Below are positions 11,238-34,110 of a stretch of 47,348 nt of DNA, piece by piece. Source of the DNA: a virus (lineage: Duplodnaviria > Heunggongvirae > Uroviricota > Caudoviricetes). The stretch lies in the IMG/VR virus record IMGVR_UViG_3300024348_000012. One strand, given 5' to 3'. Position numbers and translations under genes: made by a program. The first letter of the stretch is position 1. Every line of letters starts with the position of its first letter. The notes beneath the pieces were generated by a model that did no database searches, had not been told where the DNA came from, and saw nothing but the letters and a program-made list of their open reading frames with translations.

Positions 11238-12212
11238 ATGAAAAATTTAAGATTTATTTGTGCACAACCTTCCACTATGTATTACGCATGGCAGGTAGAA
11301 GTAATGATAAATAATTTTATAGAAATGGGTGTAAATCCAAATTTTATTGATGTTGTATCTACAAAAAAAAGTGGGTTTATATCCGATGAATGGTTAAAAC
11401 TATGTGAACATTTTAATAATGTAAGATTTTTCTTTTACGAAGATTTGAGGGAAAATAAAAATTATATTTCTTCTATAAGACCCAATATCTTAAAACAACA
11501 TTTTAAAAAAAATCCGTATCTTAAAGATGAAATTATATTTTATCATGATTGTGATATTTTATTAACAAAACCAATTGATGAATGGATATGTTGTGCAATG
11601 TATTCGGACGATAATTGGTATGGTTCGGATTGTCGTTGGTATATTGGTCACGATTATATATTATCAAAAGGAAATGATATACTTGCAAAAATGTGTGATA
11701 TCATAGGAATAAAAAAAGAAGTTATAAAAGAAAATGAACTTAATTCAATTGGTGCACAATATTTGATGAAAGGAATTACTCATTATTTTTGGGATAAAGT
11801 AGAAAAAGATTCAGAAATTTTATTTAAAGAAATTACAGAATTAAATGATGAAAAAATAATTGAAGATAGGAGAACAATGCCACCCGGTGAAGAAAGAACA
11901 CCATACCACCCATTGCAGATATGGTGTGCAGATATGTGGGCAGTTTTATGGAATGGTTGGAAGATGGGATATAAAACAATTCCAAGTTCAAAATTTAATT
12001 TTACTTGGGCAACTGGAACAAAAACAGAATTTGAAAAAAATAATATATTTCATAATGCCGGTATAGTTAATGGTGATATAAATAGATTTTACAAAGGTAA
12101 ATATACTGATAAACTTCCATATGGTGATGAATTAAACATTATAGAAGATAGTGCTAGTTTAGAATATTGGAAATATATACAATCGGTTGGTAAAAAAAGT
12201 GTTTTAATATAA
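11238..12212 (+). CDS. Peptide O-glycosyltransferase-like protein, GT-A fold, resembling plant HPAT (GT95) / peptidyl-serine galactosyltransferase (GT96)
   Basis: Five colinear motifs: YYAWQVEVM, YISSIRPNILKQH, FYHDCDILLTKP (DxD), IGAQYLM, IWCADMWAVLWNGWKMG, matching recalled HPAT motifs YNTWQCRVM, YVVLNRPWAFVQW, LMSEPDHIIVKP, IGNSPVI, GWVLEMYAY...HG. Confidence 0.7.
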   Translation: MKNLRFICAQPSTMYYAWQVEVMINNFIEMGVNPNFIDVVSTKKSGFISDEWLKLCEHFNNVRFFFYEDLRENKNYISSIRPNILKQHFKKNPYLKDEIIFYHDCDILLTKPIDEWICCAMYSDDNWYGSDCRWYIGHDYILSKGNDILAKMCDIIGIKKEVIKENELNSIGAQYLMKGITHYFWDKVEKDSEILFKEITELNDEKIIEDRRTMPPGEERTPYHPLQIWCADMWAVLWNGWKMGYKTIPSSKFNFTWATGTKTEFEKNNIFHNAGIVNGDINRFYKGKYTDKLPYGDELNIIEDSASLEYWKYIQSVGKKSVLI

Positions 12213-12220
12213 TTATTTTT

Positions 12221-13204
12221 ATGACAGTATTCATTACGACAGGTTACGGAAAAAATGTTATAGGTGGCGCAGACTTATGGTGCAATAACTTTATAGAAAA
12301 TGTTTTACCACTACTCAAAGAAGATTATAAAATAATCATTGATGGTAGACCTTTGATTAAAGAATTTGGTGCAATCTACACTTACGAAAACGAAAAAGAA
12401 GTTGATAGAATATTAAAAGAATGTGATAAGATTATTTTCTTACACCATTCTTATAAACCAAATCCAATTATTAAAAATTATTTACACAAAACCTATCTCA
12501 CATTTGTCCATGCTTTTATTCCTGATATGTTGGGATTAAATAATGATTATGAAAACATAATGACAAAAGTAGATTGGGTATGGCAAAAAAAAATATTAGA
12601 TAATTCCGACAATATAGTTTGGATTGGATATGAAGATGATACAATACACAAAGAATATCCAAAAACAAAAACTATTACAAATTATTATGAGTGGAAACAT
12701 AACAAACCATTTACAGGAATTGTAAGTAATAAAATTGGATATGCAGCAAGATGTGAAACCAGAAAGAATGCACATTATTTAGATTACATTCCGTCAATTA
12801 TATTTTCAAACAAATATGATTACAAAAGAATGTTAGAAGGTTCAAAAACCAATTCTGACTATCATAGATTTATAGAATTTGACTATCATTTTCATAACAA
12901 ATTTTTTGAAGGAAACTTTCAAATATTTCATGGATGTTATACAAAAGAACCATTTGGATATGCAATATTTGATGCAGTGGATAATGGTAAAGTTCCTATT
13001 ATACATACGGATTGGATGAAACATATTGATTACAAATATAGAGCAAATAGTAAAGGAGAATTTCATTCAAGATATTTAGAATTACAAGAAAATAGTTTTG
13101 AAGAAGTAAATAAAGAGTTTTGTAAATTAAGAGAAGGGTTAAATGAATACACTAACAGAAAAAAATGGGTTACACAAATATGCAGTTACTTAATGAAAAA
13201 TTAA
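12221..13204 (+). CDS. GT-B glycosyltransferase (GT4-like)
   Basis: N-terminal IGGADLW and C-terminal EPFGYAIFDAVDNGKVPII (variant of EPFGLVxLEAMAxGxPVI). Confidence 0.75.
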   Translation: MTVFITTGYGKNVIGGADLWCNNFIENVLPLLKEDYKIIIDGRPLIKEFGAIYTYENEKEVDRILKECDKIIFLHHSYKPNPIIKNYLHKTYLTFVHAFIPDMLGLNNDYENIMTKVDWVWQKKILDNSDNIVWIGYEDDTIHKEYPKTKTITNYYEWKHNKPFTGIVSNKIGYAARCETRKNAHYLDYIPSIIFSNKYDYKRMLEGSKTNSDYHRFIEFDYHFHNKFFEGNFQIFHGCYTKEPFGYAIFDAVDNGKVPIIHTDWMKHIDYKYRANSKGEFHSRYLELQENSFEEVNKEFCKLREGLNEYTNRKKWVTQICSYLMKN

Positions 13205-13938
13205 TAAAAGAATATCTTACCAATAATCATAAAATTAATGAAGATGGTAATGTTATTTTAGAACCTGTAAAGTATCGTTGGACACATGGTGCTACTGATT
13301 TACACTTAGGGGATGGCCTTTTGGTATACTCTTTCATTCAATTTATTAGAGCAAAGGTATGTGTCTGTATCGGGTCAGGAGGTGGATTTATACCTCGTCT
13401 TATGACACAAGCTAGAATGGATTTACATTCCCAAAATATATTTGAAGGAAACAATCAACCCGAATGGGGAGACATTGGAACTACTATTATTGTTGATGCT
13501 GCAAATGGTATTGGTGGATTTACTGATTGGACAGAAGAGAATAGTTTTTTAAGACAACATTTTTCTCCACAAGTTATTTTAGAAACATCAGAAAAAGCTT
13601 TTTATGATTATTTTGTAAGACAAGATATTAAAATAGACTACTTACACATTGACGGAGACCATTCATATGAGGGTGTTAAAAAAGATTTTGAATTATATTC
13701 TACAATTATGGCTGAAAATGGGATTATTACCATTCACGACATAGACCAAAATTATCATGATACATTTGTAGTAACTGAAAATGCCAAAGAAGATTTTGTT
13801 CCGTTTGATGGACCAGGCAAATTTATTAAAGAATTAGAAGAAGATAAAAAATGGAATTTGGTAAGTTTAAAAAATTTTCGTATGTTTGATAAAAAAGTTA
13901 CAAGCACTGGTTTAGCATTACTAACTAAAAAAGCTTAA
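13165..13938 (+). CDS. Class I SAM methyltransferase (Methyltransf_24-like, glycan O-methyltransferase type)
   Basis: VCIGSGGGF motif I, IDYLHIDGDHSYEGVKKDF, GIITIHD; true start may be ATG 13180. Confidence 0.82.
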   Translation: MGYTNMQLLNEKLIKEYLTNNHKINEDGNVILEPVKYRWTHGATDLHLGDGLLVYSFIQFIRAKVCVCIGSGGGFIPRLMTQARMDLHSQNIFEGNNQPEWGDIGTTIIVDAANGIGGFTDWTEENSFLRQHFSPQVILETSEKAFYDYFVRQDIKIDYLHIDGDHSYEGVKKDFELYSTIMAENGIITIHDIDQNYHDTFVVTENAKEDFVPFDGPGKFIKELEEDKKWNLVSLKNFRMFDKKVTSTGLALLTKKA

Positions 13939-13946: not shown

Positions 13947-14792
13947 ATGAATAAAAAAACTAGATTAGTTACAGTAACAGGTAGTAGAACTAACACTTTG
14001 TGGCATATGTTAAATCATTACAGACACATCGTAGATGAAATTTATGTTGTAGTTTATGAGTGGGAAGGAGTATCTACTTTAAAAGATGTGGGAGAAATTC
14101 TTGTAAATTTTCCAACTGCAAAGGTAGTAAGAGTTGCAAAAAAAGAAAAATTTAATTGGGAATATGTAACACAATTATATAATGAAACTAAATTAATGCA
14201 CCCGGATGACTGGTGGGTGGTTGCAGATGATGATGAACTTCACATATATCCAATGCCGTTACCATTTATGATTGAAGATTGTGAAGATAATGGGTGGGAT
14301 ATTGTTAGAGGAGGATTTATAGATAGAATTGGAGAAGGGGGTATTTTTCCTGAAATCAAACCATATAAAAATATATTTAAACAATTTCCATTAGCAGGAT
14401 TTTTTAGATACCCATTATCAGGAGCATGTCCAAATAAAGTATGTGTAATGAAAGGATATATAGAAATAACATCTGGCCAACATTATGCAAAAATAAATGG
14501 TGAAACATTATGGGGCCCGCAAATTGATAATAAAAATATTGCACCTGTTGATAAATATTACGTGCAAGTCCATCATTTTAAATGGGATAGTACCTGTGTG
14601 GAAAGAATTAAAGCAGTTGCTGATACTAAAAAGGAATATGCATTTTCAAAAGAATATTTAAAAATGTATCAAGCAATTAGAAGTAATAATTTTGAAATTG
14701 ATATAAATGATACAGAGTTTATGATTGAAAATATTGGTGAAAATGAATATACTCAATGGGTTGAACTTTTTCAAAAAATAACTTTAATATAA
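13947..14792 (+). CDS. GT-A glycosyltransferase (GT2/GT92-like)
   Basis: WWVVADDDEL DxD motif, late VHHFKW motif, N-terminal LWHMLNHY typical of the Glyco_tranf_2_4 group. Confidence 0.75.
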   Translation: MNKKTRLVTVTGSRTNTLWHMLNHYRHIVDEIYVVVYEWEGVSTLKDVGEILVNFPTAKVVRVAKKEKFNWEYVTQLYNETKLMHPDDWWVVADDDELHIYPMPLPFMIEDCEDNGWDIVRGGFIDRIGEGGIFPEIKPYKNIFKQFPLAGFFRYPLSGACPNKVCVMKGYIEITSGQHYAKINGETLWGPQIDNKNIAPVDKYYVQVHHFKWDSTCVERIKAVADTKKEYAFSKEYLKMYQAIRSNNFEIDINDTEFMIENIGENEYTQWVELFQKITLI

Positions 14793-14852: not shown

Positions 14853-15062
14853 ATGGCTACAGCTAAAAAAACAGAAACAAACACACAACAAGACGATTTA
14901 CTTTTATTAGAACAAAGAAAAGTAAAAGCATTGGAAAAAATTGCAAATTCTATGGATGCGCTCACTATTTGGTTTGAAGAAATAGATAAAGAAGAGTGGA
15001 GTCAAAGAATACAATACTATTTATCAGAGTTTCATACAAAAGTCGTAAAAGATAGTGAATAA
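14853..15062 (+). CDS. Small helical hypothetical protein
   Basis: 69-aa ORF after a promoter, overlapping the next GTG start. Confidence 0.65.
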   Translation: MATAKKTETNTQQDDLLLLEQRKVKALEKIANSMDALTIWFEEIDKEEWSQRIQYYLSEFHTKVVKDSE

Positions 15063-16467
15063 AGTAGGAATTATAGTTCCGTACCGAAGTAGATATGACC
15101 ATATTCATATATTCAAAAAAGTAATTACTGCTTATCTAAAATCAAAAAATATAGATTATGAATTAATAATCGTTGAACAAGATGATGCCCTATTGTTTAA
15201 TAGAGGAATGTTGTTAAATATTGGATTTAAATATGCTAAAAAATTAAAATGTAATTATGTAGTTTTTCACGACGTTGATATGTTACCGGTTGATGTAGAT
15301 TATAGTTATTCCGACATACCTTTACATTTAGCTACAAATTTTATATCAGAAGAAGGTGAAAAAGAGAGAGTTATATTTGATACATATTTTGGTGGAGTAA
15401 CACTATTTCCTATGAAAGATTTTGAAGAAATTGATGGATATTCTAACAAATATTGGGGTTGGGGTTATGAAGACGACGACTTACTATTTAGATGCAAAGA
15501 AAAATTTATAAAATTAGATACTCTTAAAATTAAAAATTTAGGAAAAAAAGGTAAAGCATTAAAATTCAATGGAATAACTTCACATGTAAAATCTAATAAT
15601 GTATTGGATTTTAATTCTAGTTTTTCAATTTTTATTTCTTTTATGCCGGATGAGTTGGAATTAAATCATAAAAAGAAATCAGATGAATTTGCAGTATTTA
15701 GTATACCTGGATATGATTTTGCAATTTGTTATACTTCATTTCAAAGATACAATTTTTGTGCATTTGATAGTGAATTAAATGCATTATATGTAAACTCTAA
15801 TATAAAACCAAATTATAAAACAAATATGGTAATATCATTAGATGCTATGGATAAAATAATTAAAGTTTATCAAGACGGAGAATTTATTGGTGAAACAAAA
15901 CCTTATAAAAGATTATACAAATATAGAATGGAACCAAATTTTTATTTAGGAGTTGGTAAACCTGATAGAGAAATAATACCTAATTTTTTTAAAGGTTACA
16001 TTGATTCATTTGCTATTTATGATTCACAATTGTCTGATAGAGAAATAAAAGAAATATCAACAACAGATGCCGATTTAAGAACATTCAAATCAGGTTTAAA
16101 CTTAAAAACATATTATGATGCAAATCACATAAAACATTATAAATTAAAAGATTTATCTAAAAATGATAATGAAGGAGAGATAATTGGATGTGAGATTGTT
16201 GATTTAGATTGTGAAGATGAAATTGAAATAAAAATACCACATAGAAAAAAATCATTATTTCAATCACTTAAACATGAAGAAAATGGATTTTTGGGAAATA
16301 AATGGAAAAACGATGCAACAAGATGGAATCAATTAAGATTTCAAAATGAAGTGTATAGGCATGTATCTTTAATAAATAGAGACGGACTTTCTACGTTAAA
16401 ATATAAAACACATGGAATTGTTAGTGATAAAGAAAATAAAATAACACAAATAACAGTTGGGATATAA
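15055..16467 (+). CDS. GT7 (beta-1,4-galactosyltransferase-like) with an inserted LamG/ConA-like lectin domain
   Basis: IIVPYR, FNRGMLLNIGF, VFHDVDMLP, YFGGV, NKYWGWGYEDDDL; then LamG-like block (LKFNG, FYLGVG, FKGYIDSFAIYD); then GT7 tail SLKH...DGLSTLKY...ITQITVGI. Confidence 0.85.
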   Translation: MNKVGIIVPYRSRYDHIHIFKKVITAYLKSKNIDYELIIVEQDDALLFNRGMLLNIGFKYAKKLKCNYVVFHDVDMLPVDVDYSYSDIPLHLATNFISEEGEKERVIFDTYFGGVTLFPMKDFEEIDGYSNKYWGWGYEDDDLLFRCKEKFIKLDTLKIKNLGKKGKALKFNGITSHVKSNNVLDFNSSFSIFISFMPDELELNHKKKSDEFAVFSIPGYDFAICYTSFQRYNFCAFDSELNALYVNSNIKPNYKTNMVISLDAMDKIIKVYQDGEFIGETKPYKRLYKYRMEPNFYLGVGKPDREIIPNFFKGYIDSFAIYDSQLSDREIKEISTTDADLRTFKSGLNLKTYYDANHIKHYKLKDLSKNDNEGEIIGCEIVDLDCEDEIEIKIPHRKKSLFQSLKHEENGFLGNKWKNDATRWNQLRFQNEVYRHVSLINRDGLSTLKYKTHGIVSDKENKITQITVGI

Positions 16468-17873
16468 TGAAATTAGGAGTATGCGTACCATATAGAAATA
16501 GAGAAGAACATATGAATCAGTTTGTTCCTCATGTTACAAAATTCTTAGAAGAAAGAGGAATTGAACATACTATCTATCTTGCTCACCAGTGCGACGATAA
16601 ACTTTTTAATAGAGGTTTAATGAAGAACATTGCAGCTAAATACGCATTTGATGATGGGTGTGATTATATTGTATGGCACGATATTGATATGGTACCTGAA
16701 GATGAGAGTTGTGATTATTCATTTCCAAAAGACAATCCACAACATATCGCAGTTCGTATTTCACAATCGGATTATCAATTAAAATATGAAGAATACTTTG
16801 GTGGTGCTGTTTTATTTTCAAAAGAACAAGTAGAAAGAACCAATGGTTACTCAAATGACTATTGGGATTGGGGAATGGAAGATGATGATTTATTTTGGAG
16901 ATGTGTGATGGAGGGTTACGCAGAAAAAACAAATTTAGATTATGATAAAGAAATGTATGTATCATATTTTAATGGTATAAATTCTAAAATTCAATTTAGA
17001 CCCAGTAGAGAGCAAAGAGATTGTCTTTCTAATTCACATACGATTTCAGTTTTGGTAAAAGCTGACCAACAAATAGAAAAAGTTCCAATTTGGTTAATTG
17101 GAGATGAAGAAAGAAAGTTTGTAGAGTATCCCATATTTAGAAAACCAGGATACGATTGGGGATTATCTTTCAACAATAGTAGAGCATATACAATGCAACT
17201 TTGGGATAGGACTAAACAACATTTATACCAATGGATTAAAAGATATGAAAACCAATGGAGTTGGATTACAATGGCCGTAGATTCTGAAAATAATAAAATT
17301 CATTTTTATTTAAATGGTAGAGAAAGTGACGCAAGATTAGGTACTGGTACACAATCACCATTAAGTTTTTCAGAACCATTAAAGAAATATGGAATGGAAC
17401 CATTTAATGTTGGATATTCCAAATCACCTGTTGAAGAATTTTTTAAAGGCGGTATTGCTAGCATACAAATGTGGGATAGATGCTTAACATCCGATGAGAT
17501 AAAAAATCTACATAAAGAAATGCCTGAAGATAATTTGATATTAGATATATTCACTATGAATTTAGAATTTGGTGAAATGGAAAACATTGAATTAAAAAAA
17601 GAAAAAATAGAAATACCAAATACAATTTTACCTTATAGAAGAAATGGTAAATTTTTATGTCTACCACATCAAACGGAAGGATTGATTAATGTCGGTGGCA
17701 TAGATAAGTGGGCAAAGGGAGAAACAACTGCAAAAAACGAAAGAAGATATGTGTTACAGATGCAGCAAGGGAATATAGATTATAAAAATGACGGAATCAA
17801 TAGTATGAATTATGAATTTATTTCAATTGATACTATTTATAATAGACACAAAATGATAAATGTAAAAGTATAG
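16467..17873 (+). CDS. Second GT7 with inserted LamG/ConA-like domain
   Basis: VCVPYRNR, FNRGLMKN, VWHDIDMVP, YFGGAV, NDYWDWGMEDDDL; LamG block (YFNG, IHFYLNG, FKGGIASIQMWDRCLT); tail CLPH...DGINSMNY. Confidence 0.85.
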   Translation: MKLGVCVPYRNREEHMNQFVPHVTKFLEERGIEHTIYLAHQCDDKLFNRGLMKNIAAKYAFDDGCDYIVWHDIDMVPEDESCDYSFPKDNPQHIAVRISQSDYQLKYEEYFGGAVLFSKEQVERTNGYSNDYWDWGMEDDDLFWRCVMEGYAEKTNLDYDKEMYVSYFNGINSKIQFRPSREQRDCLSNSHTISVLVKADQQIEKVPIWLIGDEERKFVEYPIFRKPGYDWGLSFNNSRAYTMQLWDRTKQHLYQWIKRYENQWSWITMAVDSENNKIHFYLNGRESDARLGTGTQSPLSFSEPLKKYGMEPFNVGYSKSPVEEFFKGGIASIQMWDRCLTSDEIKNLHKEMPEDNLILDIFTMNLEFGEMENIELKKEKIEIPNTILPYRRNGKFLCLPHQTEGLINVGGIDKWAKGETTAKNERRYVLQMQQGNIDYKNDGINSMNYEFISIDTIYNRHKMINVKV

Positions 17874-17875: not shown

Positions 17876-19276
17876 ATGGCATATAAAAAACCTCTATATG
17901 AGGAAGTAAAAAATACATTAGATAATGTAGGAAAAGGAATGTGTTTAGCAAAATGGACACAAGTTACAACACATCTCCACACAGGACATAATCATAGTTG
18001 TCACCATCCAAACACACATAAAGTATCAGAAGCGGAGATTGCAAGAAATCCATCCGCACTTCATAATACTCTTTTCAAAAAACAAAAAAGAAAAGAAATG
18101 TTACAAGGTGCAAGACCTACCGAATGTGATTATTGTTGGAATGTTGAAGATAATTCTGATTTATATTCGGATAGAATATTTAAATCTTCCGAAGATTGGA
18201 GTTGGCCATTAGCAGACCAAATTATTAATTCAAATTGGAGAGACGATTTTAATCCACGTTATGTTGAGGTTGCATTTAGTAATGCTTGTAATTTTAAATG
18301 TTCATATTGTTCACCTACATTTTCTACACAATGGATGGAAGAAATTCAACAATATGGGGGATATGATACAACTGATAAATTTAACGACTTAAAACATTTG
18401 GCAGCTGAACAAAAGATGCCAATTCCACATAAAGATTATAATCCATATGTAGATGCATTTTGGAAATGGTGGCCGGATTTATATAGAGATTTACATACTT
18501 TTAGAATTACCGGTGGTGAACCTTTAATGTCAAAGGATACATGGAAGGTGTTAGATTATATAATTGATGAAAAAAATCCAAATAAAAATTTAGATTTTTC
18601 TATTAATTCTAACTTAGGTGTACCAGATGAATTGATTACAAAATTAATTGAAAAATTAAAAAGAATCACCGAAGAAGATAAGGTAAAAGGATTTGTATTA
18701 TTTACATCTTGTGATGCATGGGGTGCACAAGCTGAGTATATTAGACATGGTTTGGAGTTTTCTAGATTTTGGAATAATGTAAATAGAATCCTAAGAGAAG
18801 TTCCAAGAATTACAATTACATTTATGGTAACATATAATATGTTATCGGTATTTAGTTTTGATAAATTAATTAAAGGTGTATATGATTTGAAAAGAGAATA
18901 TGCAGGAGATGATAGATATTGGTTATCACCAGTATTATTAGATACATCTTATTTAAGGCATCCAAAACATCAAACTGTTCAAATACTTCCACATCAATTT
19001 AAACAAAATATTTTTGACCAAGCTCAACTTGCATTTTATTACGGAATTCCGTATTATTCAAAAGGATATGTTGGATATTCTGATTTGGAAATTCAAAAAT
19101 TAAAAAGAACATATGATTGGGCAATTTCTCCAATTAAAGATGATGAGTTACACAAAGCAAGATATAATTTTTATAAATTTTTTAGTGAACACGATAAAAG
19201 AAGAGGAACAAATTTTTGTAAAACTTATCCAGAATTAGAAGAATTTTATAATTTCACAAAAACAATTCAGTTATAA
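17876..19276 (+). CDS. Radical SAM protein with extra Cys-rich (SPASM/twitch-like) N-terminal region
   Basis: CNFKCSYC (CxxxCxxC), ITGGEPL, N-terminal CLAKW...SCHH...CDYCW. Confidence 0.88.
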   Translation: MAYKKPLYEEVKNTLDNVGKGMCLAKWTQVTTHLHTGHNHSCHHPNTHKVSEAEIARNPSALHNTLFKKQKRKEMLQGARPTECDYCWNVEDNSDLYSDRIFKSSEDWSWPLADQIINSNWRDDFNPRYVEVAFSNACNFKCSYCSPTFSTQWMEEIQQYGGYDTTDKFNDLKHLAAEQKMPIPHKDYNPYVDAFWKWWPDLYRDLHTFRITGGEPLMSKDTWKVLDYIIDEKNPNKNLDFSINSNLGVPDELITKLIEKLKRITEEDKVKGFVLFTSCDAWGAQAEYIRHGLEFSRFWNNVNRILREVPRITITFMVTYNMLSVFSFDKLIKGVYDLKREYAGDDRYWLSPVLLDTSYLRHPKHQTVQILPHQFKQNIFDQAQLAFYYGIPYYSKGYVGYSDLEIQKLKRTYDWAISPIKDDELHKARYNFYKFFSEHDKRRGTNFCKTYPELEEFYNFTKTIQL

Positions 19277-19277: not shown

Positions 19278-20012
19278 ATGTACAAAGTAAAATATAAAGA
19301 ACCATTAATTTTAGCAGATTTACCATGGTGGCCCCACAACGCATATGGTATCATTGATACGGCTGCGTTTTATGTAATGAATGAATCTAGTTGGACAATA
19401 AGTGGAACTTGGAAAAAAACAGATGACGATTCTAAAATAGACGAAATGTCAGGTATTTTTATGAGAAGAGGATTGCATACTGGTATTGTATATAGAAAGC
19501 CGGATATGGTAATGTTGAATTTTTGGTACATTGAAAACGAAGAAGAAAAGTATGCAGATAAAATTATCTTTTATAAAGATGAATCATTTTGGAATGAACC
19601 ACATTTATTTACATTAAATTGGAATGGTGAAACTTTCACTTACGAATTTTGGGTAGACGATGAATTAGTATATTCCGAAACATTACCAGGTAAATTAAGA
19701 GATTATGTAAATGCACCATATTTTATAGGAGCAGCTGATACCAAAGGTGATTTTAGTTGGGCACAAGAATGTTATACCGATTTTTTTATAGTATCTAATA
19801 AAAAATTAGATGGTTCAGTAATAAACGATTTTAGAAAAAATATAGATTCATATGTTATCAAAAACAAACATGGATTTAGATGTTTAAATAAAAACGAATT
19901 AGGATTATTATGTTGTTTTGATTTTAAAACCGAAACAGATTATAAATTTTGGGATATGACCGGAAATAATAATCATTTAATGAAACATTGTAAAGATTTA
20001 GAAAAACTTTAA
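19278..20012 (+). CDS. Stand-alone LamG/ConA-like lectin-domain protein
   Basis: SWTISGTWK, FTLNWNG, FWVDDELV, YFIGA, FWDMTGNNNHL pattern similar to the GT7 inserts. Confidence 0.55.
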   Translation: MYKVKYKEPLILADLPWWPHNAYGIIDTAAFYVMNESSWTISGTWKKTDDDSKIDEMSGIFMRRGLHTGIVYRKPDMVMLNFWYIENEEEKYADKIIFYKDESFWNEPHLFTLNWNGETFTYEFWVDDELVYSETLPGKLRDYVNAPYFIGAADTKGDFSWAQECYTDFFIVSNKKLDGSVINDFRKNIDSYVIKNKHGFRCLNKNELGLLCCFDFKTETDYKFWDMTGNNNHLMKHCKDLEKL

Positions 20013-27301: not shown

Positions 27302-28386
27302 AACATATAATTTGTAGTGGTTGTTCTTTTACAAGAGCAGGTCGGCTAAATATAAATGTAACTTCTGATAATTTTTTAAAAGAAGATGACCAAACCGGTG
27401 ATTCAAATGAATTTAACTACTATCCACATTGGATTCAAACACTACATCCAGAAACAAACGTAATAAATTTGGGTAGTGTAACTAATGATAATAAAACAAT
27501 AGCTAGAAGTATAATTTATAAAATAGAAAAACTAAAAAAACAAGAAATACCATTAAATGATATATCGGTAATAGTTCAATGGTCATCTTTTTATAGAAAT
27601 TCTTTTTTTGTATCACCATCTAAACAAAAAGAAAATCAAAAGTTAAAATTACCACAAGATAGAGGTAGATGGAGTGATGAAAATTCACATATAAATGATT
27701 TTGTAGAAGAAAAAACAAATTTAGGTGAGCATGGTTATTATTTTTTAACTGGTGGTTTTGGTATGGGACATGTAAAAAACCCAATTAAAGATTTTGCTGA
27801 ATTATATTTAGGCCACCTACATTCATATGAGGAAAGATTACTTTCGTTTTTAGAAACAATTGTTATGTTACAGATGTATTTAAAATCAAATGGAATTAAA
27901 TATAAAATGTTTAATATTGCAAACAATTTTTCAGATACATATGTTTTAAATTGTATAAATGGTGGAGGTTTTCCTGATTTCAAACCAACAGGCGGCAAAC
28001 GTAATCAAATGTATGAAATTATAAAAAATAAATATATTCCAAATACATGGAATGATAAAATGGAATATTTTTCAAATCCATATTTAAAATATTATTATGA
28101 TATGATAGATTGGGATGGTTTTTGGTTTTACGAAGAAGAAAATAATCATAAATATGGTGGAGTTACGGAATGGGCCATTAAAAATTTTAATATAAACGAC
28201 CCGAACAGAGATGTGAATTTTAGAAATGCACTTTTTATGGAACAAATAATAAGAGATAATAAAGAATATACCGAAGATAATTTGATTGATATATATGAGG
28301 ACTGGAGGTGCCCACTTGGACATGTATCTGCTAGAATGTATAAATTATTTACTCAAAATGTAATTTCAAAATGGAATCTTTTTTAA
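27298..28386 (+). CDS. SGNH-hydrolase-like protein (GCS variant), tandem paralog of the previous gene
   Basis: IICSGCSFT, VIVQWS, YYFLTGG, FWFYE...HKYGG..EW, C-terminal LGHVS all shared with 26276..27301. Confidence 0.55.
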   Translation: MKHIICSGCSFTRAGRLNINVTSDNFLKEDDQTGDSNEFNYYPHWIQTLHPETNVINLGSVTNDNKTIARSIIYKIEKLKKQEIPLNDISVIVQWSSFYRNSFFVSPSKQKENQKLKLPQDRGRWSDENSHINDFVEEKTNLGEHGYYFLTGGFGMGHVKNPIKDFAELYLGHLHSYEERLLSFLETIVMLQMYLKSNGIKYKMFNIANNFSDTYVLNCINGGGFPDFKPTGGKRNQMYEIIKNKYIPNTWNDKMEYFSNPYLKYYYDMIDWDGFWFYEEENNHKYGGVTEWAIKNFNINDPNRDVNFRNALFMEQIIRDNKEYTEDNLIDIYEDWRCPLGHVSARMYKLFTQNVISKWNLF

Positions 28387-29057
28387 AAAAACAATTATTT
28401 GAAACCGGATATATTTCATTTAAATTAAAAGAATTTGATGAAAAAATTTATAATTCTTTAAAAGTTTTATTTCCTCCAGGAAGTTTAAATCCAAAACAAT
28501 TTAATAATTTAAAAGCTTCCATAATAAAAAGAAAAAATAATGATATTGACCCCAAATGGCCAAACGTATCAAATGGTAAATTTGAAGAACTTGAAGAAAT
28601 AAAAAAAGAAATAATAAAAAATTGTAACAACGATTCAAACAATTCATACGGATTAGACCAAATATGGTATTTTGATTGGCCATATGACCCCAAATGTTCA
28701 AAAACACCACATTCAGAAATATTAAATCCTATTTTTAAATATTTTTATGATGTTGAGTGTGATTCGGCAAATTCACAAATAACAATGTATAATGATGATT
28801 GTTTTTTAATAAATCATAGAGATGGTGACGGAGGATACACAGGAGACAGAAAGTGTGCAATACTCATATATCTTTCTACGGACTATGAAAATGGTAAAGG
28901 AGGAGAAATGGTTTTAAGTAAAGATAAAAATAATGAAGAGTGGATAGAACCAATATACGGAAATGTTGCTATATTTGATTTTACAAAACACAACATATGG
29001 CATAGAGTAGAAAAAATAAATGGATATAATAGATATTGTTACATAAATTTTTGTTAA
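28371..29057 (+). CDS. 2OG-Fe(II) oxygenase, EGLN/prolyl-4-hydroxylase-like
   Basis: INHRD (HxD), CAILIYLS, GGEM, IEPIYG, WHRVEKI, distal R (NRY). Confidence 0.85.
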   Translation: MESFLKKQLFETGYISFKLKEFDEKIYNSLKVLFPPGSLNPKQFNNLKASIIKRKNNDIDPKWPNVSNGKFEELEEIKKEIIKNCNNDSNNSYGLDQIWYFDWPYDPKCSKTPHSEILNPIFKYFYDVECDSANSQITMYNDDCFLINHRDGDGGYTGDRKCAILIYLSTDYENGKGGEMVLSKDKNNEEWIEPIYGNVAIFDFTKHNIWHRVEKINGYNRYCYINFC

Positions 29058-29085: not shown

Positions 29086-30717
29086 ATGAATCAACCTTTT
29101 AAAATATTTAATTTAGATGATAAGACAAAATCTTATTTAAAATCTTTATTACCCGCAGAACCACAAATAGATAGAATTAGAGCATCTGTTGATGGAATTG
29201 GAAATCCGACATTACAATTTAAACCAAATGAATTTAAATCATTTGAAGAATTTGAAAATAAAAAAAATGAGTTAATAAAAGAATACAAACCATCGTTATT
29301 AGGTGGTAAAAATTCAAAATTATCTCAAATTTGGTATTCTATGAAGTATGATAATACTAGAAATCATATTGCAGATATTCTTAAAAATATAATAAAAGAA
29401 AATTATAACATAGAATATCCAATGGAATTTATGTGGGAATTGACAATGTTTACGGAAGATTGTTACATAGAAGAACATATAGATGGAAATGATTCAAATA
29501 GATTGGCAGGAATATTAATTTATTTAAATGAAGATTACGATAAAGAAAATGGGGGGTTATTAAAAGTAACAGACCCAATTACAAAAGAAATTACCGAAGT
29601 TGTTCCAGAATTTGGACAAGTCGTTATAATTGATTATACAAAACATTCGGTATCACATGAAGTTACACCTATAAAAAAAGGAAAGAGGTTAGCTATCTGT
29701 GCATTCATACACAAATTATCACATATGGCAAAGAGCAAAAAAGTCCTGGTTACAGGCGCGAGTGGATTTATAGGTTCACAATTGGTAAAAACATTAAATG
29801 AAAAAGGATATTGGAATATTAGAACCACATCTTTTGGTAGAGATTTACCTTCTTCTATAAACAATATAAATAATATAGAACATTTTAAGGGAGATTTAAG
29901 AGATGCTGAGTTTTGTGAAATGGTAACAAAAGATGTAGATGTTATATTTCATTTAGCAGCAAATACATCAAACGCATTGGATACAAAATTTAATCCTTTA
30001 TTACATGTTACTCCAAATATTGAAATGAATGTAAATTTGATGGAACAAGCTTGGAGAAATAGTGTGAAAAAATTTGTATTCATTTCTTCTAATACAACTT
30101 ACCCTGATATGGGTAGTGAGTTTTGTACCGAAGATATTAATGTCCATGCAACTCCAATGTTACCAGTTTATAAAGCAGTTGGTGGAATGAAAAGATATGG
30201 TGAAATGTTATGTGATTTCTTTTCAAATCAAATCCATAATCCAATGCAATGTGTAATCATCAGACCTTCAAATGCATTCGGCCCTAATGATAAATTTGAT
30301 TTTGAAAAATGTCACGTTACTCCTGCAAATATCAGAAAAGTAGCAGATGGTTTAAATCCAATCCCAATTTGGGGTGATGGTACGGAAGTAAGAGATTTAT
30401 TACATGTTGAGGATATGGCAGAAGGAATATTGTGGGTTGCAGAATCAACTAATGAATATGGTATATACAATGTATGTTATGGTAGTGGTTATAGTGTTAA
30501 TGAGGTCTTAAATTGGTTAAAAGAAATGGATAATAATACAAACCCAGTTGAATATGTAAATAATAAAGCACCTATGATTCCGGTTCGTTTATTATCATCC
30601 GAAAAGGTAAATAAACTTGGATGGAAACCAAAAAGAGATTTAAAAGAAGCTCTTAAAGAAACTTTAGAATGGTATAAAGTAAATAAACATTTATATAATC
30701 CAAATTCAAAACCATAG
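29086..30717 (+). CDS. In-frame fusion: 2OG-Fe(II) oxygenase (29086-29724) + GDP-fucose-synthase-like SDR (29725-30717)
   Basis: EEHIDG, GILIYLN, GGLL, SHEVTP, KRL; then MAKSKKVLVTGASGFIG, RPSNAFGPNDKF, HVTPA, IWGDGTEVRDLLHVEDMA; VGGMK at the YxxxK position. Confidence 0.85.
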   Translation: MNQPFKIFNLDDKTKSYLKSLLPAEPQIDRIRASVDGIGNPTLQFKPNEFKSFEEFENKKNELIKEYKPSLLGGKNSKLSQIWYSMKYDNTRNHIADILKNIIKENYNIEYPMEFMWELTMFTEDCYIEEHIDGNDSNRLAGILIYLNEDYDKENGGLLKVTDPITKEITEVVPEFGQVVIIDYTKHSVSHEVTPIKKGKRLAICAFIHKLSHMAKSKKVLVTGASGFIGSQLVKTLNEKGYWNIRTTSFGRDLPSSINNINNIEHFKGDLRDAEFCEMVTKDVDVIFHLAANTSNALDTKFNPLLHVTPNIEMNVNLMEQAWRNSVKKFVFISSNTTYPDMGSEFCTEDINVHATPMLPVYKAVGGMKRYGEMLCDFFSNQIHNPMQCVIIRPSNAFGPNDKFDFEKCHVTPANIRKVADGLNPIPIWGDGTEVRDLLHVEDMAEGILWVAESTNEYGIYNVCYGSGYSVNEVLNWLKEMDNNTNPVEYVNNKAPMIPVRLLSSEKVNKLGWKPKRDLKEALKETLEWYKVNKHLYNPNSKP

Positions 30718-31529
30718 TGAAAGATATAATCTTTGCAGGATGTTCTTACACTTGGGGGCAAAGTCTGTGGTACGAAGCAAACTTTCCAAATGATAATCAC
30801 CCAAGAGATGGATTTTTCTACGGAAATAAAGTTTGTGAAGAATGTTATGAATATATTGTAGAAAATAGATTTGCAAATCAAGTTGCAAAATATTTTAAAA
30901 AGAATGCATTAGTAGCGGCTACCAATGGAGGTGACCTGATACAAAGTATTAATTTTGTTAAAAATAGAATTTCAGAAAATACTTTTAATGGTAGAAAAAC
31001 AGAATTAGTAATATTTCAAACTACACAATTTGTTAGACACGATTCTTTAATTGATTATCAAATAGAAATGTTAGAAAATTTAGTTCTAGATTTAGAAAAA
31101 CAAAATGTACCTATTAGATTTGTACATTGGATTTGGCCTGATTTGACACAAAATGAAATTGACTTATATATAAGTGGTGTAAATACAAATTGGGGAAAAC
31201 TGGCTCCAAGGTTTAGTAAAAACAAAATACCAGTAATAAAAGATGCAATGCCACCAAATGATTCTAATAAATTGGCATCGGAAATAATACGAAGTAGAAC
31301 AATAAAATTAAATGGTAATTTTAATTTTCAATATATAACGGAAATCGGTATGGCAACTAAAAGAAATGATTATAATAAAATAAAAGATTATACCATTTAT
31401 GGTAAATTTGGTATGCCAAAAGATGCAGTAGCACCGGATACTCACTTTAGTCAAGAAGGACATAATTTTATAGCGCAAGAAATAATAAAACATTTAGAAA
31501 ATGAACAACCCAGAATATTCTCCATATAA
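30717..31529 (+). CDS. SGNH-hydrolase-like protein (GCS variant)
   Basis: IIFAGCSYTWG, VIFQTT, C-terminal PDTHFSQEGH; GTG start overlapping TAG. Confidence 0.6.
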   Translation: MKDIIFAGCSYTWGQSLWYEANFPNDNHPRDGFFYGNKVCEECYEYIVENRFANQVAKYFKKNALVAATNGGDLIQSINFVKNRISENTFNGRKTELVIFQTTQFVRHDSLIDYQIEMLENLVLDLEKQNVPIRFVHWIWPDLTQNEIDLYISGVNTNWGKLAPRFSKNKIPVIKDAMPPNDSNKLASEIIRSRTIKLNGNFNFQYITEIGMATKRNDYNKIKDYTIYGKFGMPKDAVAPDTHFSQEGHNFIAQEIIKHLENEQPRIFSI

Positions 31530-32040
31530 AGATGCATTAACAAATGCGATGACGGAGTTAGCTAAATTAGAAGATACGATTTTTATAGGACAACAAATAG
31601 TTTATGCCGGTAACCCAATGAGTACAACTTTGACAGAGGTACCAAAGGAAAAAATGATTGAAGTTCCTGTTATGGAAGAAACACAATTAGGAATGAGTTT
31701 GGGAATGGCTATCACTGGAAAAACAGTTGTAACATTCTATCCTCGTTGGGATTTTATAGTATCCGCAACAAATCAGTTAGTAAACCATTTAGATAAGTTT
31801 CAATTAATGACGGAAAAAAAAGTTAATATAATTATTAGATTGGGAAAAGGTTCTGATAAACCATTAGACCCCGGTCATCAACATAAAGGAAATTATTTTG
31901 AAGAATTTAAATCTATTTGTAAAAATATAGAATTTCACGATTTAAAAACTCCCAACGATATTGAATTGGCATACAAATATGCAACCAAAGAGGGTGGTAT
32001 ACATGTATTAGTAGAATATCCTGAATTATATTATAGTTAA
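31501..32040 (+). CDS. TPP-dependent E1-beta / transketolase pyrimidine-binding subunit (short)
   Basis: IFIGQQI, EVPVMEETQLGMSLGMAITG, YPRWDF, DPGHQH; 179 aa, no C-terminal domain. Confidence 0.88.
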   Translation: MNNPEYSPYKDALTNAMTELAKLEDTIFIGQQIVYAGNPMSTTLTEVPKEKMIEVPVMEETQLGMSLGMAITGKTVVTFYPRWDFIVSATNQLVNHLDKFQLMTEKKVNIIIRLGKGSDKPLDPGHQHKGNYFEEFKSICKNIEFHDLKTPNDIELAYKYATKEGGIHVLVEYPELYYS

Positions 32041-32669
32041 TGAAACAATTTATTTTAAAAAAAGGTAAAGTCATTTATGATGAAATATATGATGGTGGTG
32101 GAAGTTCTTTTGGTATTAACGCACTAAAAGACGAAAAAGTAAAATCAGTCATAAAAAAAGGAAACATATTAGAAATGTGTTCAGGTCCAGGCTTTATGGG
32201 ATTTTATTTAAACTTTGAAGGATATGCGGATTATTTAATTTTATCCGATATAAACGATGCACATGATTCATATATTAAAAAAACAATTGAAGAAAATAAT
32301 TTAACAAATACTAAATTTATTCAATCGGACGGATTTAAATCTTTTTACATTCATAATAATTTTGATACAATAATTATGAATGCACCACACTATTCATCAC
32401 CCAGAAATGGTGGATATGTTAATAGAGAAGAGGAACTAATTTGTTTAGATTTAGATTTAGAATTTCATAAACATTTTTTTAAATATGCTAAAAATTATTT
32501 AAAAAAAGATGGAGTAATTATATTAATTGGAAATATGGGTGGAATAAAACCAGAAGAAATAATTGATTTAGCCGGAAATGATTATAATTGTAAATTAATT
32601 GCATGTAACAGATATGGTTGGATTAGAGATTCTAGATTTTATGTTTTAGAAATAAAATTAAATGGATAA
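32040..32669 (+). CDS. Class I SAM methyltransferase (MTS/HemK-like)
   Basis: LEMCSGPGFMG, LSDIN, SDGF, IIMNAPHY (NPPY-like position). Confidence 0.8.
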   Translation: MKQFILKKGKVIYDEIYDGGGSSFGINALKDEKVKSVIKKGNILEMCSGPGFMGFYLNFEGYADYLILSDINDAHDSYIKKTIEENNLTNTKFIQSDGFKSFYIHNNFDTIIMNAPHYSSPRNGGYVNREEELICLDLDLEFHKHFFKYAKNYLKKDGVIILIGNMGGIKPEEIIDLAGNDYNCKLIACNRYGWIRDSRFYVLEIKLNG

Positions 32670-34110
32670 TAAATTAGAAAAATTAATTTTAGGATACGAT
32701 ATTTTGTTTCCTTATTGTGAAGTTCCAAATTGTTTGGACCCGAACGATTTACAATTTGCAAAAGATTGTGATTATTATTATGATAATTCTCAAACATATT
32801 TTAAAGAAAAATTAAATAAAGAATGGTATATTCATAATGGTAGATTTATGGTTCATTTAAACGATGAATCAGGCCACCCTGGATATTTTGCAATAGATAA
32901 AAAATCTACATATGATATTATTAAAGATAGGGAAAGAGGAAAAAATTATGATTGGTATTATTTAATAGAAGCGTATGGTGATTTTGATAATTTTTTAGGT
33001 TTATCAAATTCAAACACACAACCTTTTAGTGAATTTATTCCATCACATACTTTAAATGAATTAAAAAATTATAATGGTAAATTGATTATTAATTTTGCAA
33101 TAGATGGTGGTTTATCTACATTAAAAGTTGACAGATTATATGAATGTCTTTTAAATTTAAATATTCCAAAAGAAAAAATAATAATATTACATAATGATTT
33201 TAATTTAGAAAAATTAATGAAACCAATTTTTGGTGAATATATGCCAATATTAATTCACTATTGTTGGTCATTGAATTCTAAATCAGAAGAGTATTTCAAA
33301 AAAACACATCAAGATGAATTTCATTTTTGGCATACGGCCGATAGAAAAACAAATTATAGTTTTTTAACAAATGACGAATGTAAAGATTTATCCAAAAAAA
33401 CTCATAAATTTTTAAATTTAAATAGAAGATTAAGAATTCATAGAATAGATTTATTGTATTTTTTATGGAAAGAAAATATGTTGGATGATGTGTTAATAAG
33501 TTATGATAGTAAATTATTTACACATGATGGATTAGATATGATAAGAAAAAAGTTATCCATAGAAGAATGGAATGATTTTTATCATTATATCGTACACACA
33601 TCTCCTAGAATTGTTGATTACTATGATATAGAAAGTATTTGGGGATATGGATTTGAAACAAAAGAAATATATGAAAAATCATTGATATCAATATTATCTG
33701 AAACATTTTTTTATGAAGAAAGTGGGTACTTGAGTGAGAAAATTTGGAAACCAATAGCACATGGCCACCCATTTATTTTAATCGGCCCACAAAATTCTTT
33801 AAAATTTATTAAAAAAGAATTTGGTTTTAAAACATTTCATCCGTTTATAAATGAAGCATATGATGCAATTGAAGATGGCAATTTAAGAATGGAAATGATT
33901 CAAAAAGAAATAAAAAGATTAAATAGTTATTCATTAGAAGAATTAAAAAAAATAGTAGAACAAGTTATACCGATTATATTACATAATAAACAAAAATTAC
34001 TAGAATATGGAAAAAAATCTATACCATTAGATTATGTTCATTATTTAAGAATAACTGGAAAAACGGAAGAAGCGGAAAAAATATTCAATAAACAAAATCA
34101 ATTATTATGA
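32662..34110 (+). CDS. Putative glycosyltransferase (GT10-like motif), paralog of 23965..25308
   Basis: FLNLNRRLRIHR, YEKSLISILSET...YLSEKIWKPIAHGHPFILIG...FGFKTF...EAYD. Confidence 0.45.
   Translation: MDNKLEKLILGYDILFPYCEVPNCLDPNDLQFAKDCDYYYDNSQTYFKEKLNKEWYIHNGRFMVHLNDESGHPGYFAIDKKSTYDIIKDRERGKNYDWYYLIEAYGDFDNFLGLSNSNTQPFSEFIPSHTLNELKNYNGKLIINFAIDGGLSTLKVDRLYECLLNLNIPKEKIIILHNDFNLEKLMKPIFGEYMPILIHYCWSLNSKSEEYFKKTHQDEFHFWHTADRKTNYSFLTNDECKDLSKKTHKFLNLNRRLRIHRIDLLYFLWKENMLDDVLISYDSKLFTHDGLDMIRKKLSIEEWNDFYHYIVHTSPRIVDYYDIESIWGYGFETKEIYEKSLISILSETFFYEESGYLSEKIWKPIAHGHPFILIGPQNSLKFIKKEFGFKTFHPFINEAYDAIEDGNLRMEMIQKEIKRLNSYSLEELKKIVEQVIPIILHNKQKLLEYGKKSIPLDYVHYLRITGKTEEAEKIFNKQNQLL

Follow-up and report, generated by a model that had tools for sequence, protein, structure and literature searches.

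A sugar-enzyme island behind the tail-fibre gene of an uncultured T4-like myovirus: a candidate system for glycosylation of phage particle proteins

The locus described here raises the question of what a phage glycosylates when a long array of glycan-building genes lies behind its tail-fibre gene. It is found in IMG/VR record IMGVR_UViG_3300024348_000012 (47,348 nt, referred to throughout as the window), a fragment of a large, uncultured T4-like myovirus from a lake, in which positions 11238-34110 (the island) hold exactly 24 open reading frames (ORFs), all on the + strand, with junctions of -50 to +60 bp that are mostly overlaps of 1-40 bp. A first-pass annotation made from the sequence alone had described about 24 co-oriented, overlapping or abutting genes, which the count bears out; no convincing - strand gene breaks the array, and its GC content (∼0.24-0.30) compares with 0.30-0.34 in the flanks. 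The reading that we prefer, with a probability of about 0.55, is that the island is an operon-like, strain-variable cassette that glycosylates phage particle proteins, occupies a fixed slot behind the fibre gene and consists of two parts. In part A, the soluble glycosyltransferase 11238 (genes are designated by their first position and lie on the + strand unless noted) would add the first sugar to threonine, or possibly to hydroxylated proline, in the linkers of protein 10242, in the cytoplasm and ahead of virion assembly. Part B would make an unusual sugar and extend the glycan.

The acceptor-like protein and the transferase at the left edge

The ORF at 10242-11219 shares its first base with the end of the fibre stop codon, a 1-nt overlap that is also found in relatives, and encodes a 325-residue fibre-coupled protein that we propose as the O-glycan acceptor. 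Besides a conserved N-terminus and two small globular regions, the translation contains a pair of (A-P-T-T-A)n tracts and nine consecutive threonines. Tandem Repeats Finder places the underlying DNA repeats at 10392-10520 (15 bp × 7.2 and then 9 bp × 3.2, coding for the first APTTA tract and the poly-Thr run) and at 10800-10894 (15 bp × 6.3, coding for the second APTTA tract). The N-terminal ∼50 residues are conserved in 25 ORFs of relatives (referred to as the NT family), and the protein has no match in 50,697 GenBank phage records. With this predicted composition and its position directly ahead of the first transferase, it is a mucin-like candidate acceptor.

That transferase, 11238 (11238-12212), is a GT-A protein of phrog_4417 (E = 9e-62), is GT95/HPAT-like and is proposed to be the initiating peptide O-glycosyltransferase. 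Its Atlas model (pTM 0.91) superposes on a chlorophyte HPAT cluster with a TM score of 0.73 and on a Bacteroidota GT7C cluster with a TM score of 0.91. The earlier label of HPAT-like is consistent with this result, as HPAT and GT7C clusters are its closest named neighbours, and HPAT membership among the neighbour clusters is 10%. The protein has no Pfam match at E ≤ 0.01 and so does not reach the threshold of PF23452 (HPAT), which is matched by a different gene in a relative (L125, 3775-4608; E = 5.8e-10).

The two proteins are members of a recurrent pairing. Local hidden Markov models were built from the loci of the clade for the NT-family N-terminus, for the family of prolyl-4-hydroxylase (P4H)-type oxygenases found in the slot and for the 11238/HPAT family, and the richness of a tract was measured as the maximum P+T fraction in 20 residues. 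All 15 NT proteins with Pro/Thr-rich tracts (0.60-1.00) are accompanied in the slot by a P4H-type oxygenase and/or an HPAT-like transferase, mostly directly adjoining, and the eight NT proteins that lack such tracts (0.20-0.50) are all without either partner. Pfam identified the slot oxygenases as 2OG-FeII_Oxy_3 in seven of seven tested cases and one slot transferase as PF23452 HPAT. The partners sort by repeat type: poly-Pro and (PT)n proteins occur with P4H, (TPAP)n proteins with both P4H and the transferase, and poly-Thr/APTTA proteins with an 11238-type transferase and no adjoining P4H. Because the partners of 11238 are rich in threonine rather than proline and lack an adjoining P4H, threonine is the more likely acceptor residue. 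Runs of at least six threonines are found in only four of the 2334 ORFs of the clade loci, and all four of these ORFs abut an 11238-type transferase. In one relative (L118, 4393-5463) a radical S-adenosylmethionine (SAM)/SPASM enzyme comes after a poly-Thr protein and an 11238-type transferase, which suggests an extra modification of the acceptor or the sugar.

The same arrangement is seen outside the clade. The phrog_4417 family is present in 77 GenBank phages (tblastn), and in the ten cultured phages examined its genes are always placed in capsid/tail modules. In nine of these ten contexts the phrog_4417 gene directly follows a gene for a poly-Thr protein of the structural module, with the tract C-terminal in several: Lactobacillus phages Semele (gp075), 521B (gp116) and iLp84 (gp8; such tracts occur in the capsid and tail proteins too), Lactococcus phages 1706 (gp13) and CHPC836 (capsid), Chryseobacterium phage MA9V-3, Staphylococcus phage PT94, Clostridium phage phiCTP1 (gp18) and Enterococcus phage phiFL1A (gp50). 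The exception is Enterococcus phage Planchet, whose major tail protein, encoded 1.7 kb away, carries the tract. Scanning IMG/VR with a profile gave at least 592 further phrog_4417 stretches; in the best 80 of these loci a poly-Thr-type tract is present in 51 of the 75 captured upstream ORFs and in 24 of 436 other (control) ORFs, and the loci without an upstream tract belong mostly to one or two clonal groups. The lineages behind these counts are not independent; the pairing nonetheless recurs over unrelated phage families. From this comparison of genes, it is very probable that the pair at the left edge of the island acts in protein O-glycosylation.

Enzymes for making, tailoring and attaching the sugar

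In part B (22 genes), a host nucleotide sugar, most likely of the GDP-mannose type, would be converted into a 6-deoxy sugar. In the proposed order, the short-chain dehydrogenase/reductase (SDR) 20016 would be followed by the RmlC-type epimerase 20989, by the thiamine pyrophosphate (TPP) enzyme formed by 23355 and 31501, which would install a two-carbon branch, and by the Fcl-like SDRs 25278 and 29086. Oxygenases of the 2-oxoglutarate (2OG) type, a pair each of radical SAM enzymes and methyltransferases, and four DUF6071/SGNH-like proteins would tailor the sugar further. Another six soluble transferases (12221, 13947, the two GT7-LamG enzymes and 23965/32662) would then build the oligosaccharide on phage particle proteins, with the mucin-like protein and/or the fibre as candidate acceptors. 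For the two GT7 enzymes, RmlC, the three extended SDRs, the TPP alpha and beta halves, the two methyltransferases, the two radical SAM enzymes and the two 2OG domains, Pfam and NCBIfam agree with the first-pass labels. Ten ORFs without a Pfam match were followed up with PHROGs, NCBIfam, Atlas, AlphaFold with Foldseek/VIA and member-wise Pfam scans; nine of the ten stayed nameless with PHROGs and NCBIfam, and no PDB sequence was matched below E = 0.1 when profiles of the 12221, 13947, 32662/23965 and DUF6071 families were used as queries.

The first enzyme of the proposed pathway (20016-20987) is an extended SDR and a candidate nucleoside diphosphate (NDP)-hexose 4,6-dehydratase or epimerase (Epimerase, E = 1.5e-33; GDP_Man_Dehyd, E = 2.3e-24) with a canonical YxxxK motif (YGQTK, residue 143), and is followed by the RmlC-type 3,5-epimerase (20989-21534; PF00908, E = 2.8e-32). 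The TPP enzyme is minimal and split, with separate genes for the alpha half (23355-23993; PP domain, 212 residues; E1_dh, E = 1.2e-16) and the beta half (31501-32040; Pyr domain, 179 residues; Transket_pyr, E = 3.4e-7) located among the NDP-sugar genes. The other two SDRs resemble GDP-fucose synthase: 25278 (25278-26276) has Fcl as its best NCBIfam match (E = 2.2e-34) and contains YxxxK nowhere in the protein, and 29086 (29086-30717) is a fusion, delimited by Pfam, of a 2OG oxygenase (∼29440-29712) and an SDR (∼29734-30696; NCBIfam Fcl, E = 1.7e-38). The SDR part of the fusion likewise has no canonical YxxxK, and most relatives retain this part only.

A precedent for such a TPP pair is provided by antibiotic biosynthesis, in which the two-carbon branches of eurekanate and paulomycose are put in place by the PDH-E1-like pairs AviB1/B2 and Pau11/12 together with a non-haem-iron enzyme (PMC4425429). 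The genes for avilamycin (AviB1/AviB2 and AviO2), paulomycin (Pau11/Pau12) and yersiniose (YerE) share with the island the arrangement of a split TPP enzyme among genes for NDP-sugar dehydratase, epimerase and reductase and for non-haem-iron oxygenases. They differ in that Pau11 and Pau12 have 325 and 345 residues, compared with 212 and 179 in the phage halves, which are encoded 7.5 kb apart, and in that the setting here is a virus or a cell-surface locus and the activity of the phage enzyme is a prediction. Because both unusual SDRs match GDP-fucose synthase best and the TPP pair has this precedent, we infer that the product may be a GDP-linked, C2-branched and further tailored 6-deoxy sugar.

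The tailoring enzymes are distributed along the island. The 2OG-Fe(II) oxygenase 28371 (28371-29057) belongs to the P4H-type superfamily (PF13640, E = 1.1e-10; HRD at residue 149). The 2OG domains of the window match the slot P4H family at E = 2e-7 or not at all, and their genes are 17 kb from 11238; this distance from the slot P4H family, together with the fusion of one domain to a sugar SDR, favours a role in sugar tailoring of the AviO2 type. The methyltransferases are a class I SAM-dependent enzyme (13165-13938; Methyltransf_24, E = 2.3e-11) and a class I enzyme of the MTS type (32040-32669; PF05175, E = 3.6e-9). The DUF6071/SGNH-like proteins are found at 21534-22265 (short, with a GCSF motif; aligned with 26276 and 27298 through invariant G-C-S, N and G-H), at 26276-27301 (by alignment and by an Atlas feature score of 0.97 to DUF6071 clusters), at 27298-28386 (PF19547, E = 1.3e-6) and at 30717-31529 (short, with a GCSY motif; by alignment). 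An alignment of 16 sequences of this family has invariant G-C-S, two Asn, R and G-H. The four had been called SGNH-like, and the invariant residues retain that likeness; we class them as DUF6071-type, and the family profile has no match among PDB sequences.

The first radical SAM enzyme (17876-19276) has an N-terminal twitch-type cysteine cluster (NF033640 N_Twi_rSAM, 353 bits with a cut-off of 170; CxxxCxxC at residue 138), and the second (22216-23358) matches PF04055 (E = 7.8e-13) and, weakly, N_Twi_rSAM. The only homologue of 17876 among the 50,697 GenBank phage records is in Ralstonia phage RsoM2USA (MG752970.1, a 344-kb jumbo phage), in which positions 217357-218691 encode a protein with 39% identity (E = 1e-106); the record contains two matching places. 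Two small genes complete this set. The 69-residue protein at 14853-15062 is present in 47 relatives with invariant R, K, W and Y; it was considered as a carrier or acceptor peptide and rejected, as no Ser or Thr is among the conserved positions. The 244-residue protein at 19278-20012 occurs in 13 relatives and has no Pfam, PHROG or NCBIfam match.

The remaining transferases are of both GT folds. The first gene of the conserved core, 12221 (12221-13204), encodes a GT-B enzyme (AlphaFold pLDDT 85) that had been labelled GT4-like; the fold and the Foldseek matches to GlgM, PimA, BshA and WbnH (E = 1e-10), with a conserved E-P-F-G motif, uphold the label. The GT2-like assignment of the GT-A enzyme 13947 (13947-14792) is likewise supported, with PF13704 matched by nine of ten homologues (best E = 7.7e-7) and an invariant DDDE. 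The enzymes 15055 (15055-16467; GT7N, E = 6.7e-20; GT7C, E = 5.7e-17; Laminin_G_3, E = 2.5e-7) and 16467 (16467-17873; assigned by Pfam and a paralogue of 15055 at E = 3e-51) belong to the beta-1,4-galactosyltransferase family GT7, scoring 61-71 bits against Pfam cut-offs of 23-27 with the family motifs present. A single LamG domain had been noted in the island; there are two, one inserted in each GT7 catalytic domain (∼15577-16050 and ∼17022-17504) between WGxEDDD and the C-terminal DG(L/I)(S/N), an insert that is atypical for the family. In 15055 the motifs DVD and WGYEDDD are ahead of the insert and DGLSTLKY is behind it. Gene 16467 is the most widely retained of the island, with 207 IMG/VR stretches.

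The last two transferases, 23965 (23965-25308) and the final gene of the island, 32662 (32662-34110; AlphaFold pLDDT 79), are GT-B paralogues (BLASTP, E = 5e-22; the fold of 23965 is taken from the family model). Both had been labelled GT10-like. The GT-B relationship stands, and neither has a Pfam or PDB sequence match; in VIA comparisons of the 32662 family the alpha-1,3-fucosyltransferases (Helicobacter pylori FucT and FUT9, Z = 10.0-10.7) tie with T4 beta-glucosyltransferase (BGT, Z = 11.5) and adhesin transferases (Gtf3, Z = 10.3), and the top Foldseek matches of 32662 are SdgB, TarM and GtfA. The GT7-LamG and 32662 families have no match in the 50,697 GenBank phage records. The likeness of both GT-B families to T4 AGT/BGT, with BGT as the top, tied match of the 32662 family, in a T4-like phage with replication genes just left of the fibre, brings in the alternative that the transferases glycosylate hydroxymethylated DNA bases and the sugar pathway supplies exotic donors. 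This is highly improbable. The likeness extends no further than the generic GT-B fold, and LamG inserts, Thr/Pro-rich partners and slot cassettes of P4H, HPAT or PF11397 type (see below) would make no sense for DNA. Furthermore, of the four CheckV-complete genomes of relatives in IMG/VR (209-287 kb), G002 and G003 (both CheckV 100%, the latter with a full island core) lack the thymidylate-synthase/hydroxymethylase family PF00303; G004 and G005 have a member, which is indistinguishable from ThyA.

The slot across relatives and the destination of the glycan

The slot is bounded on the left by the tail-fibre gene (4981-10242; 1753 residues; Peptidase_S74 C-terminus, E = 1.4e-15; tail-fibre PHROGs), a homologue of which is ahead of the island in relatives, and on the right by a backbone gene outside the island (34248-36923) that encodes an 891-residue protein with an N-terminal HIGH-type nucleotidyltransferase domain. 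TerL, the T4-type portal and the prohead protease are located beyond the 891-residue gene. The island thus sits between a single fibre gene and the packaging/head module, as had been proposed; the further claim that it is embedded in one late structural region does not hold, as replication genes lie to the left of the fibre and there is no single long structural block. In Flavobacterium phage immuto, the primase, an exonuclease and the homologue of the 891-residue protein are inside ∼3 kb with one hypothetical gene between, which indicates that the fibre and the island fill a slot that immuto lacks.

We retrieved 72 related IMG/VR loci with the 891-residue protein. The core of the island, conserved yet mosaic, follows the fibre gene in every one of the more than 200 contigs that contain it. 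The usual order is fibre, a variable left segment, 12221, methyltransferase, 13947, 14853, the two GT7-LamG genes, radical SAM, SDR 20016, RmlC, TPP alpha, a 23965-type gene, SDR 25278, DUF6071, the 29086 SDR, TPP beta, a 32662-type gene and the 891-residue gene; the right half is mosaic and is partly inverted in some contigs. In two close relatives (L023 and L066; TerL 95-96% identical) the same slot holds a PT-repeat protein, a PF11397 transferase, GT2s and a P4H-type oxygenase instead of the core; we take PF11397 to be the Skp1/mucin-type peptide GlcNAc-transferase family. Because the content differs this widely among relatives, including the complete genomes G002 and G003 described below, the slot is a hypervariable glycosylation locus and not a one-off insertion, and the comparison across related phages proposed with the first-pass annotation gives a conserved, mosaic core in a hypervariable slot. 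In a relative with a minimal island (L043, 5905-6597), the NT-family protein has a poly-Gly run in place of Thr/Pro repeats, reminiscent of the glycine-rich motifs in gp38 fibre-tip adhesins of the T2 type.

By their sequences, the enzymes of the island are all soluble. None of the 24 ORFs contains a membrane-helix-like 19-residue hydrophobic window; only two ORFs, those for methyltransferase 13165 and for the alpha half of the TPP enzyme (23355), reach values of at least 1.6, which we read as nucleotide- or cofactor-binding folds and not as membrane helices. Pfam scans of the island found no flippase, polymerase or phosphoglycosyl-transferase domain. These scans agree with the earlier statement that the island has no flippase, polymerase, undecaprenyl-phosphate transferase or transmembrane transferase. 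Soluble transferases beside structural genes are the pattern of phage virion-protein glycosylation, and the island abuts the fibre gene. What the sequences establish is the gene content, the folds and families, solubility, synteny and the co-occurrence counts; from these we infer the acceptor, the identity of the sugar, the order of steps and an action of part B on virion proteins.

Several findings weigh against such an action. The 237-kb complete relative G003 (TerL 64%) has a syntenic 20.6-kb island and no Thr/Pro-rich protein in the whole 237 kb, though the core is present; part B thus needs no mucin-like acceptor, and the idea that the mucin-like tract is the universal acceptor of the core is ruled out. 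The 209-kb complete relative G002 (TerL 90%) retains one GT7-LamG gene of the 16467 type and no other island gene genome-wide, so the island is dispensable. The link of the 10242 product to the virion is a weak phrog_2300 match. Promoter-like motifs give no timing signal: the T4 late-promoter motif TATAAATA has 11 matches compared with 15 expected, none usefully sited, and scans for sigma-70-like promoters and terminators are at or below shuffle level. Known GT7 enzymes use sugar acceptors and not protein directly. The clade is known here from its genes, and a glycan on its particles is a prediction. In addition, the sugar module is found in a surface-glycan locus with an ABC transporter in the one cellular locus examined, that of Pelagibacter sp. 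HIMB1412 (L184, NZ_JBNAKG010000001.1, 11.9-30.5 kb). Finally, O-antigen transferases are commonly soluble or peripheral, and since soluble transferases are normal in O-antigen assembly the lack of membrane genes leaves the export machinery of the host usable. As a separate observation on G002, positions 25698-27212 (- strand), far from the fibre slot, encode a 504-residue protein with long poly-Ser/Ala tracts that could be an alternative O-glycan acceptor.

The last points lead to the alternative that the island remodels the host surface, acting on lipid-linked lipopolysaccharide (LPS), capsule or glycoprotein intermediates through the initiating transferase and exporter of the host; such a change may, for example, exclude superinfecting phages or stop the re-adsorption of progeny. 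The module of 20016, 20989, 23355, 31501, 25278 and the SDR part of 29086 (29086C) recurs in cellular genomes. Homologues of TPP alpha with 45-57% identity are found in SAR11 Pelagibacter, Candidate Phyla Radiation (CPR) bacteria, DPANN archaea and Omnitrophota, the alpha and beta genes adjoin in 19 of 22 cellular loci and most of the longer loci also hold homologues of 20016, RmlC, 25278 and the 29086 SDR. In the HIMB1412 locus two GT2s and an ABC exporter are present, and a gene of the GDP-mannose-4,6-dehydratase family is directly upstream of TPP alpha. This locus contains three TPP systems (the minimal alpha/beta pair, a YerE-like 559-residue enzyme of the acetolactate-synthase type and a split transketolase) and looks like a putative, uncharacterised pathway for a branched or higher-carbon sugar. 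Two properties of the clade are also in keeping with host-surface remodelling, namely the occurrence of the core in G003 without any mucin-like phage protein and a slot content that is hypervariable in the manner of host surface-glycan islands.

Cyanomyoviruses supply a further argument for it. S-SM2 and P-TIM68 carry a gene homologous to TPP alpha (42-44% identity), which in S-SM2 is fused with the beta half in a 402-residue protein and is part of a glycan cluster of at least 18 kb. These phages and P-SSM2, S-SCSM1 and S-SCSM2R, all T4-like with genomes of ∼200 kb, have large co-oriented 'LPS/cell-wall' clusters of transferase, NDP-sugar epimerase and RmlC genes, and their putative role is usually taken to be modification of the host surface, a reading given for comparable clusters in S-SCSM2R, S-SCSM1 and P-SSM2 (PMC12801897). 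The cyanomyoviruses differ in forming a separate clade (TerL at most 34% identical to that of the window), and the island differs from their clusters in its GT7-LamG and 32662 gene set, its position next to the fibre and its acceptor-like protein.

Against host-surface remodelling, PF02397 (Bac_transf), PF00953 (WecA-type) and PF01943 (Wzx) have no match in the four complete relatives, with control genomes positive; polymerase and ligase families were not searched there, and no separate search was made for Wzy and ABC exporter families. The position is fixed beside the fibre gene and acceptor-like proteins, the leftmost gene is clearly part of a protein-directed pairing and the alternative cassettes of the same slot use the cytoplasmic protein-glycosylation families PF11397, P4H-type and HPAT. 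We consider the host surface a viable, less likely target.

It is also conceivable, and in our estimate improbable, that only part A glycosylates the fibre-linked protein and that the product of part B is a soluble or lipid-bound glycoconjugate of its own (for example, a decoy, signal or store) unrelated to the virion. Parts A and B do occur apart, as L023 and L066 have A-type genes without the core and G003 has the core without A, and the rich tailoring set of radical SAM and 2OG enzymes, methyltransferases and acyl-type hydrolases is reminiscent of natural-product sugar pathways. The island has no carrier, aglycone-forming or export gene, and the two parts share the fibre-adjacent slot and their orientation, which argues against a separate product. 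Returning to the glycosylation of phage particle proteins, the first-pass annotation had put forward exactly this role for soluble enzymes. Their solubility, the absence of a lipid-carrier transferase and of a Wzx-type flippase and the comparative evidence on 11238 sustain that proposal; the persistence of the core in G003 without a mucin-like protein does not. For the remaining 22 genes, virion glycosylation is plausible, at about even odds.

Neighbourhood, known systems and significance

To the left of the fibre are genes for a T7-type endonuclease I, a DnaG-type primase and a fused Mre11/Rad50-like nuclease-ATPase. The fusion is a single 1048-residue ORF (1567-4713) consisting of a calcineurin-like phosphoesterase (Mre11/SbcD-type) and an AAA_23/SMC_N (Rad50/SbcC-type) ATPase; in T4 the Mre11- and Rad50-type proteins are two genes, gp47 and gp46. 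On the right, the 891-residue protein was considered as the sugar-activating nucleotidyltransferase of the island and rejected: it is a backbone gene with homologues in immuto and Microcystis phage Mel-JY01, both of which are without an island, and its best NCBIfam match is NMN adenylyltransferase, below the cut-off. Its homologues range from 891 to 1424 residues, with size differences owing to internal module duplication (for example, L043, 8120-12202, and L051, 7970-12244), and the N-terminal nucleotidyltransferase part is swapped out in many of them, so that conservation is confined to residues ∼235-891.

TerL is at most 53% identical to that of any GenBank phage, the closest being immuto and Mel-JY01. 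Shine-Dalgarno sites were not found ahead of the genes of the window. The proximity of TerL to that of immuto (53%) and the genes without Shine-Dalgarno sites point to a candidate host among the Bacteroidota; contrary to this, one contig of the clade is binned in a Pelagibacterales metagenome-assembled genome (MAG) and the sugar genes of the island are closest to SAR11 genes. Three island-bearing contigs with 63-74% identity and conserved gene order, L180 (VHCC01000006.1), L181 (CAIMCP010000084.1) and L182 (NZWA01000006.1), sit in GTDB MAGs labelled Pelagibacterales, Saccharibacteria and Flavobacteriales. They are probably mis-binned phage contigs, and the Pelagibacterales case is a weak hint to the host.

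Neither large glycan clusters in T4-like phages nor the glycosylation of virions in other viruses is new. In mycobacteriophages (Freeman et al. 2023, as cited in PMC12619734), glycans are reported on C-terminal tracts of capsid and tail-tube subunits. The resemblance lies in soluble phage transferase genes in or beside the structural genes, and the pairing of phrog_4417 with poly-Thr follows the same logic; the mycobacteriophages have one to few transferases of other families and no sugar-nucleotide pathway, compared here with seven transferases, ∼15 sugar-tailoring genes and a fibre-coupled acceptor predicted from genes. Among giant viruses, the fibril glycans of Megavirinae and the capsid glycans of chloroviruses have been solved and are made by clusters that vary among clades and supply rare, bacterial-type sugars (PMC10117803, PMC9614988). 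Clustered, virus-coded rare-sugar pathways with cytoplasmic transferases are common to these viruses and the island; their hosts are eukaryotic, and for the bacteriophage the acceptor is putative and homology at the level of genes is not claimed.

Eukaryotic protein glycosylation provides a parallel to part A. The plant and algal system of P4H with HPAT GT95 and SGT1 GT96, and Skp1 modification by P4H1 and Gnt1 (PF11397/GT60), likewise combine Pro/Thr/Ser-rich repeats with a P4H-type oxygenase and a GT-A initiator; relatives of the phage have true PF23452 and PF11397 matches beside Pro-rich proteins, and 11238 is structurally nearest to HPAT-type clusters. The island differs in that 11238 is below the PF23452 threshold and its partners are Thr-rich with no adjoining P4H. 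The gtrABC/oac O-antigen seroconversion cassettes of temperate phages are similar as phage-borne sugar-modifying genes and differ in needing membrane proteins (the GtrA flippase, GtrB, the multi-span Gtr(type) and Oac), none of which is encoded in the island. What appears to be new is the fibre-adjacent hypervariable slot, the pair of LamG-inserted GT7 enzymes, the P4H, HPAT and PF11397 cassettes beside Pro/Thr-repeat proteins and the presence of a branched-sugar module in a phage.

A more far-reaching proposal, which we hold tentatively and at somewhat less than even odds, is that tailed phages possess a self-contained, cytoplasmic O-glycosylation of mucin/extensin type, in which GT95/96-like priming of a Thr/Pro-repeat fibre-tip protein would be followed by extension by hypervariable soluble transferases with a C2-branched, methylated or acylated deoxysugar, sister phages being P4H-first or Skp1-type. 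If this is true, each strain would carry its own glycan coat on the host-recognition apparatus, and the rule that pairs phrog_4417 with poly-Thr would extend priming to capsid and tail-tube proteins in phages of Bacillota and Bacteroidota. The island offers testable pairs, 11238 with poly-Thr/APTTA peptides and the P4H-type oxygenases of sister phages with poly-Pro proteins, and the probable branched-chain sugar route is also present in SAR11, CPR and DPANN genomes, where it is apparently uncharacterised. The island bears on the long-standing question of the purpose of the large 'LPS' clusters in T4-like cyanophages. If the virions of this abundant freshwater clade do carry complex, strain-specific glycans at or close to the tail fibre, glycosylation would be a variable layer of host recognition, particle stability or evasion, for which giant viruses and a few mycobacteriophages, and not T4-like phages, are the known cases.

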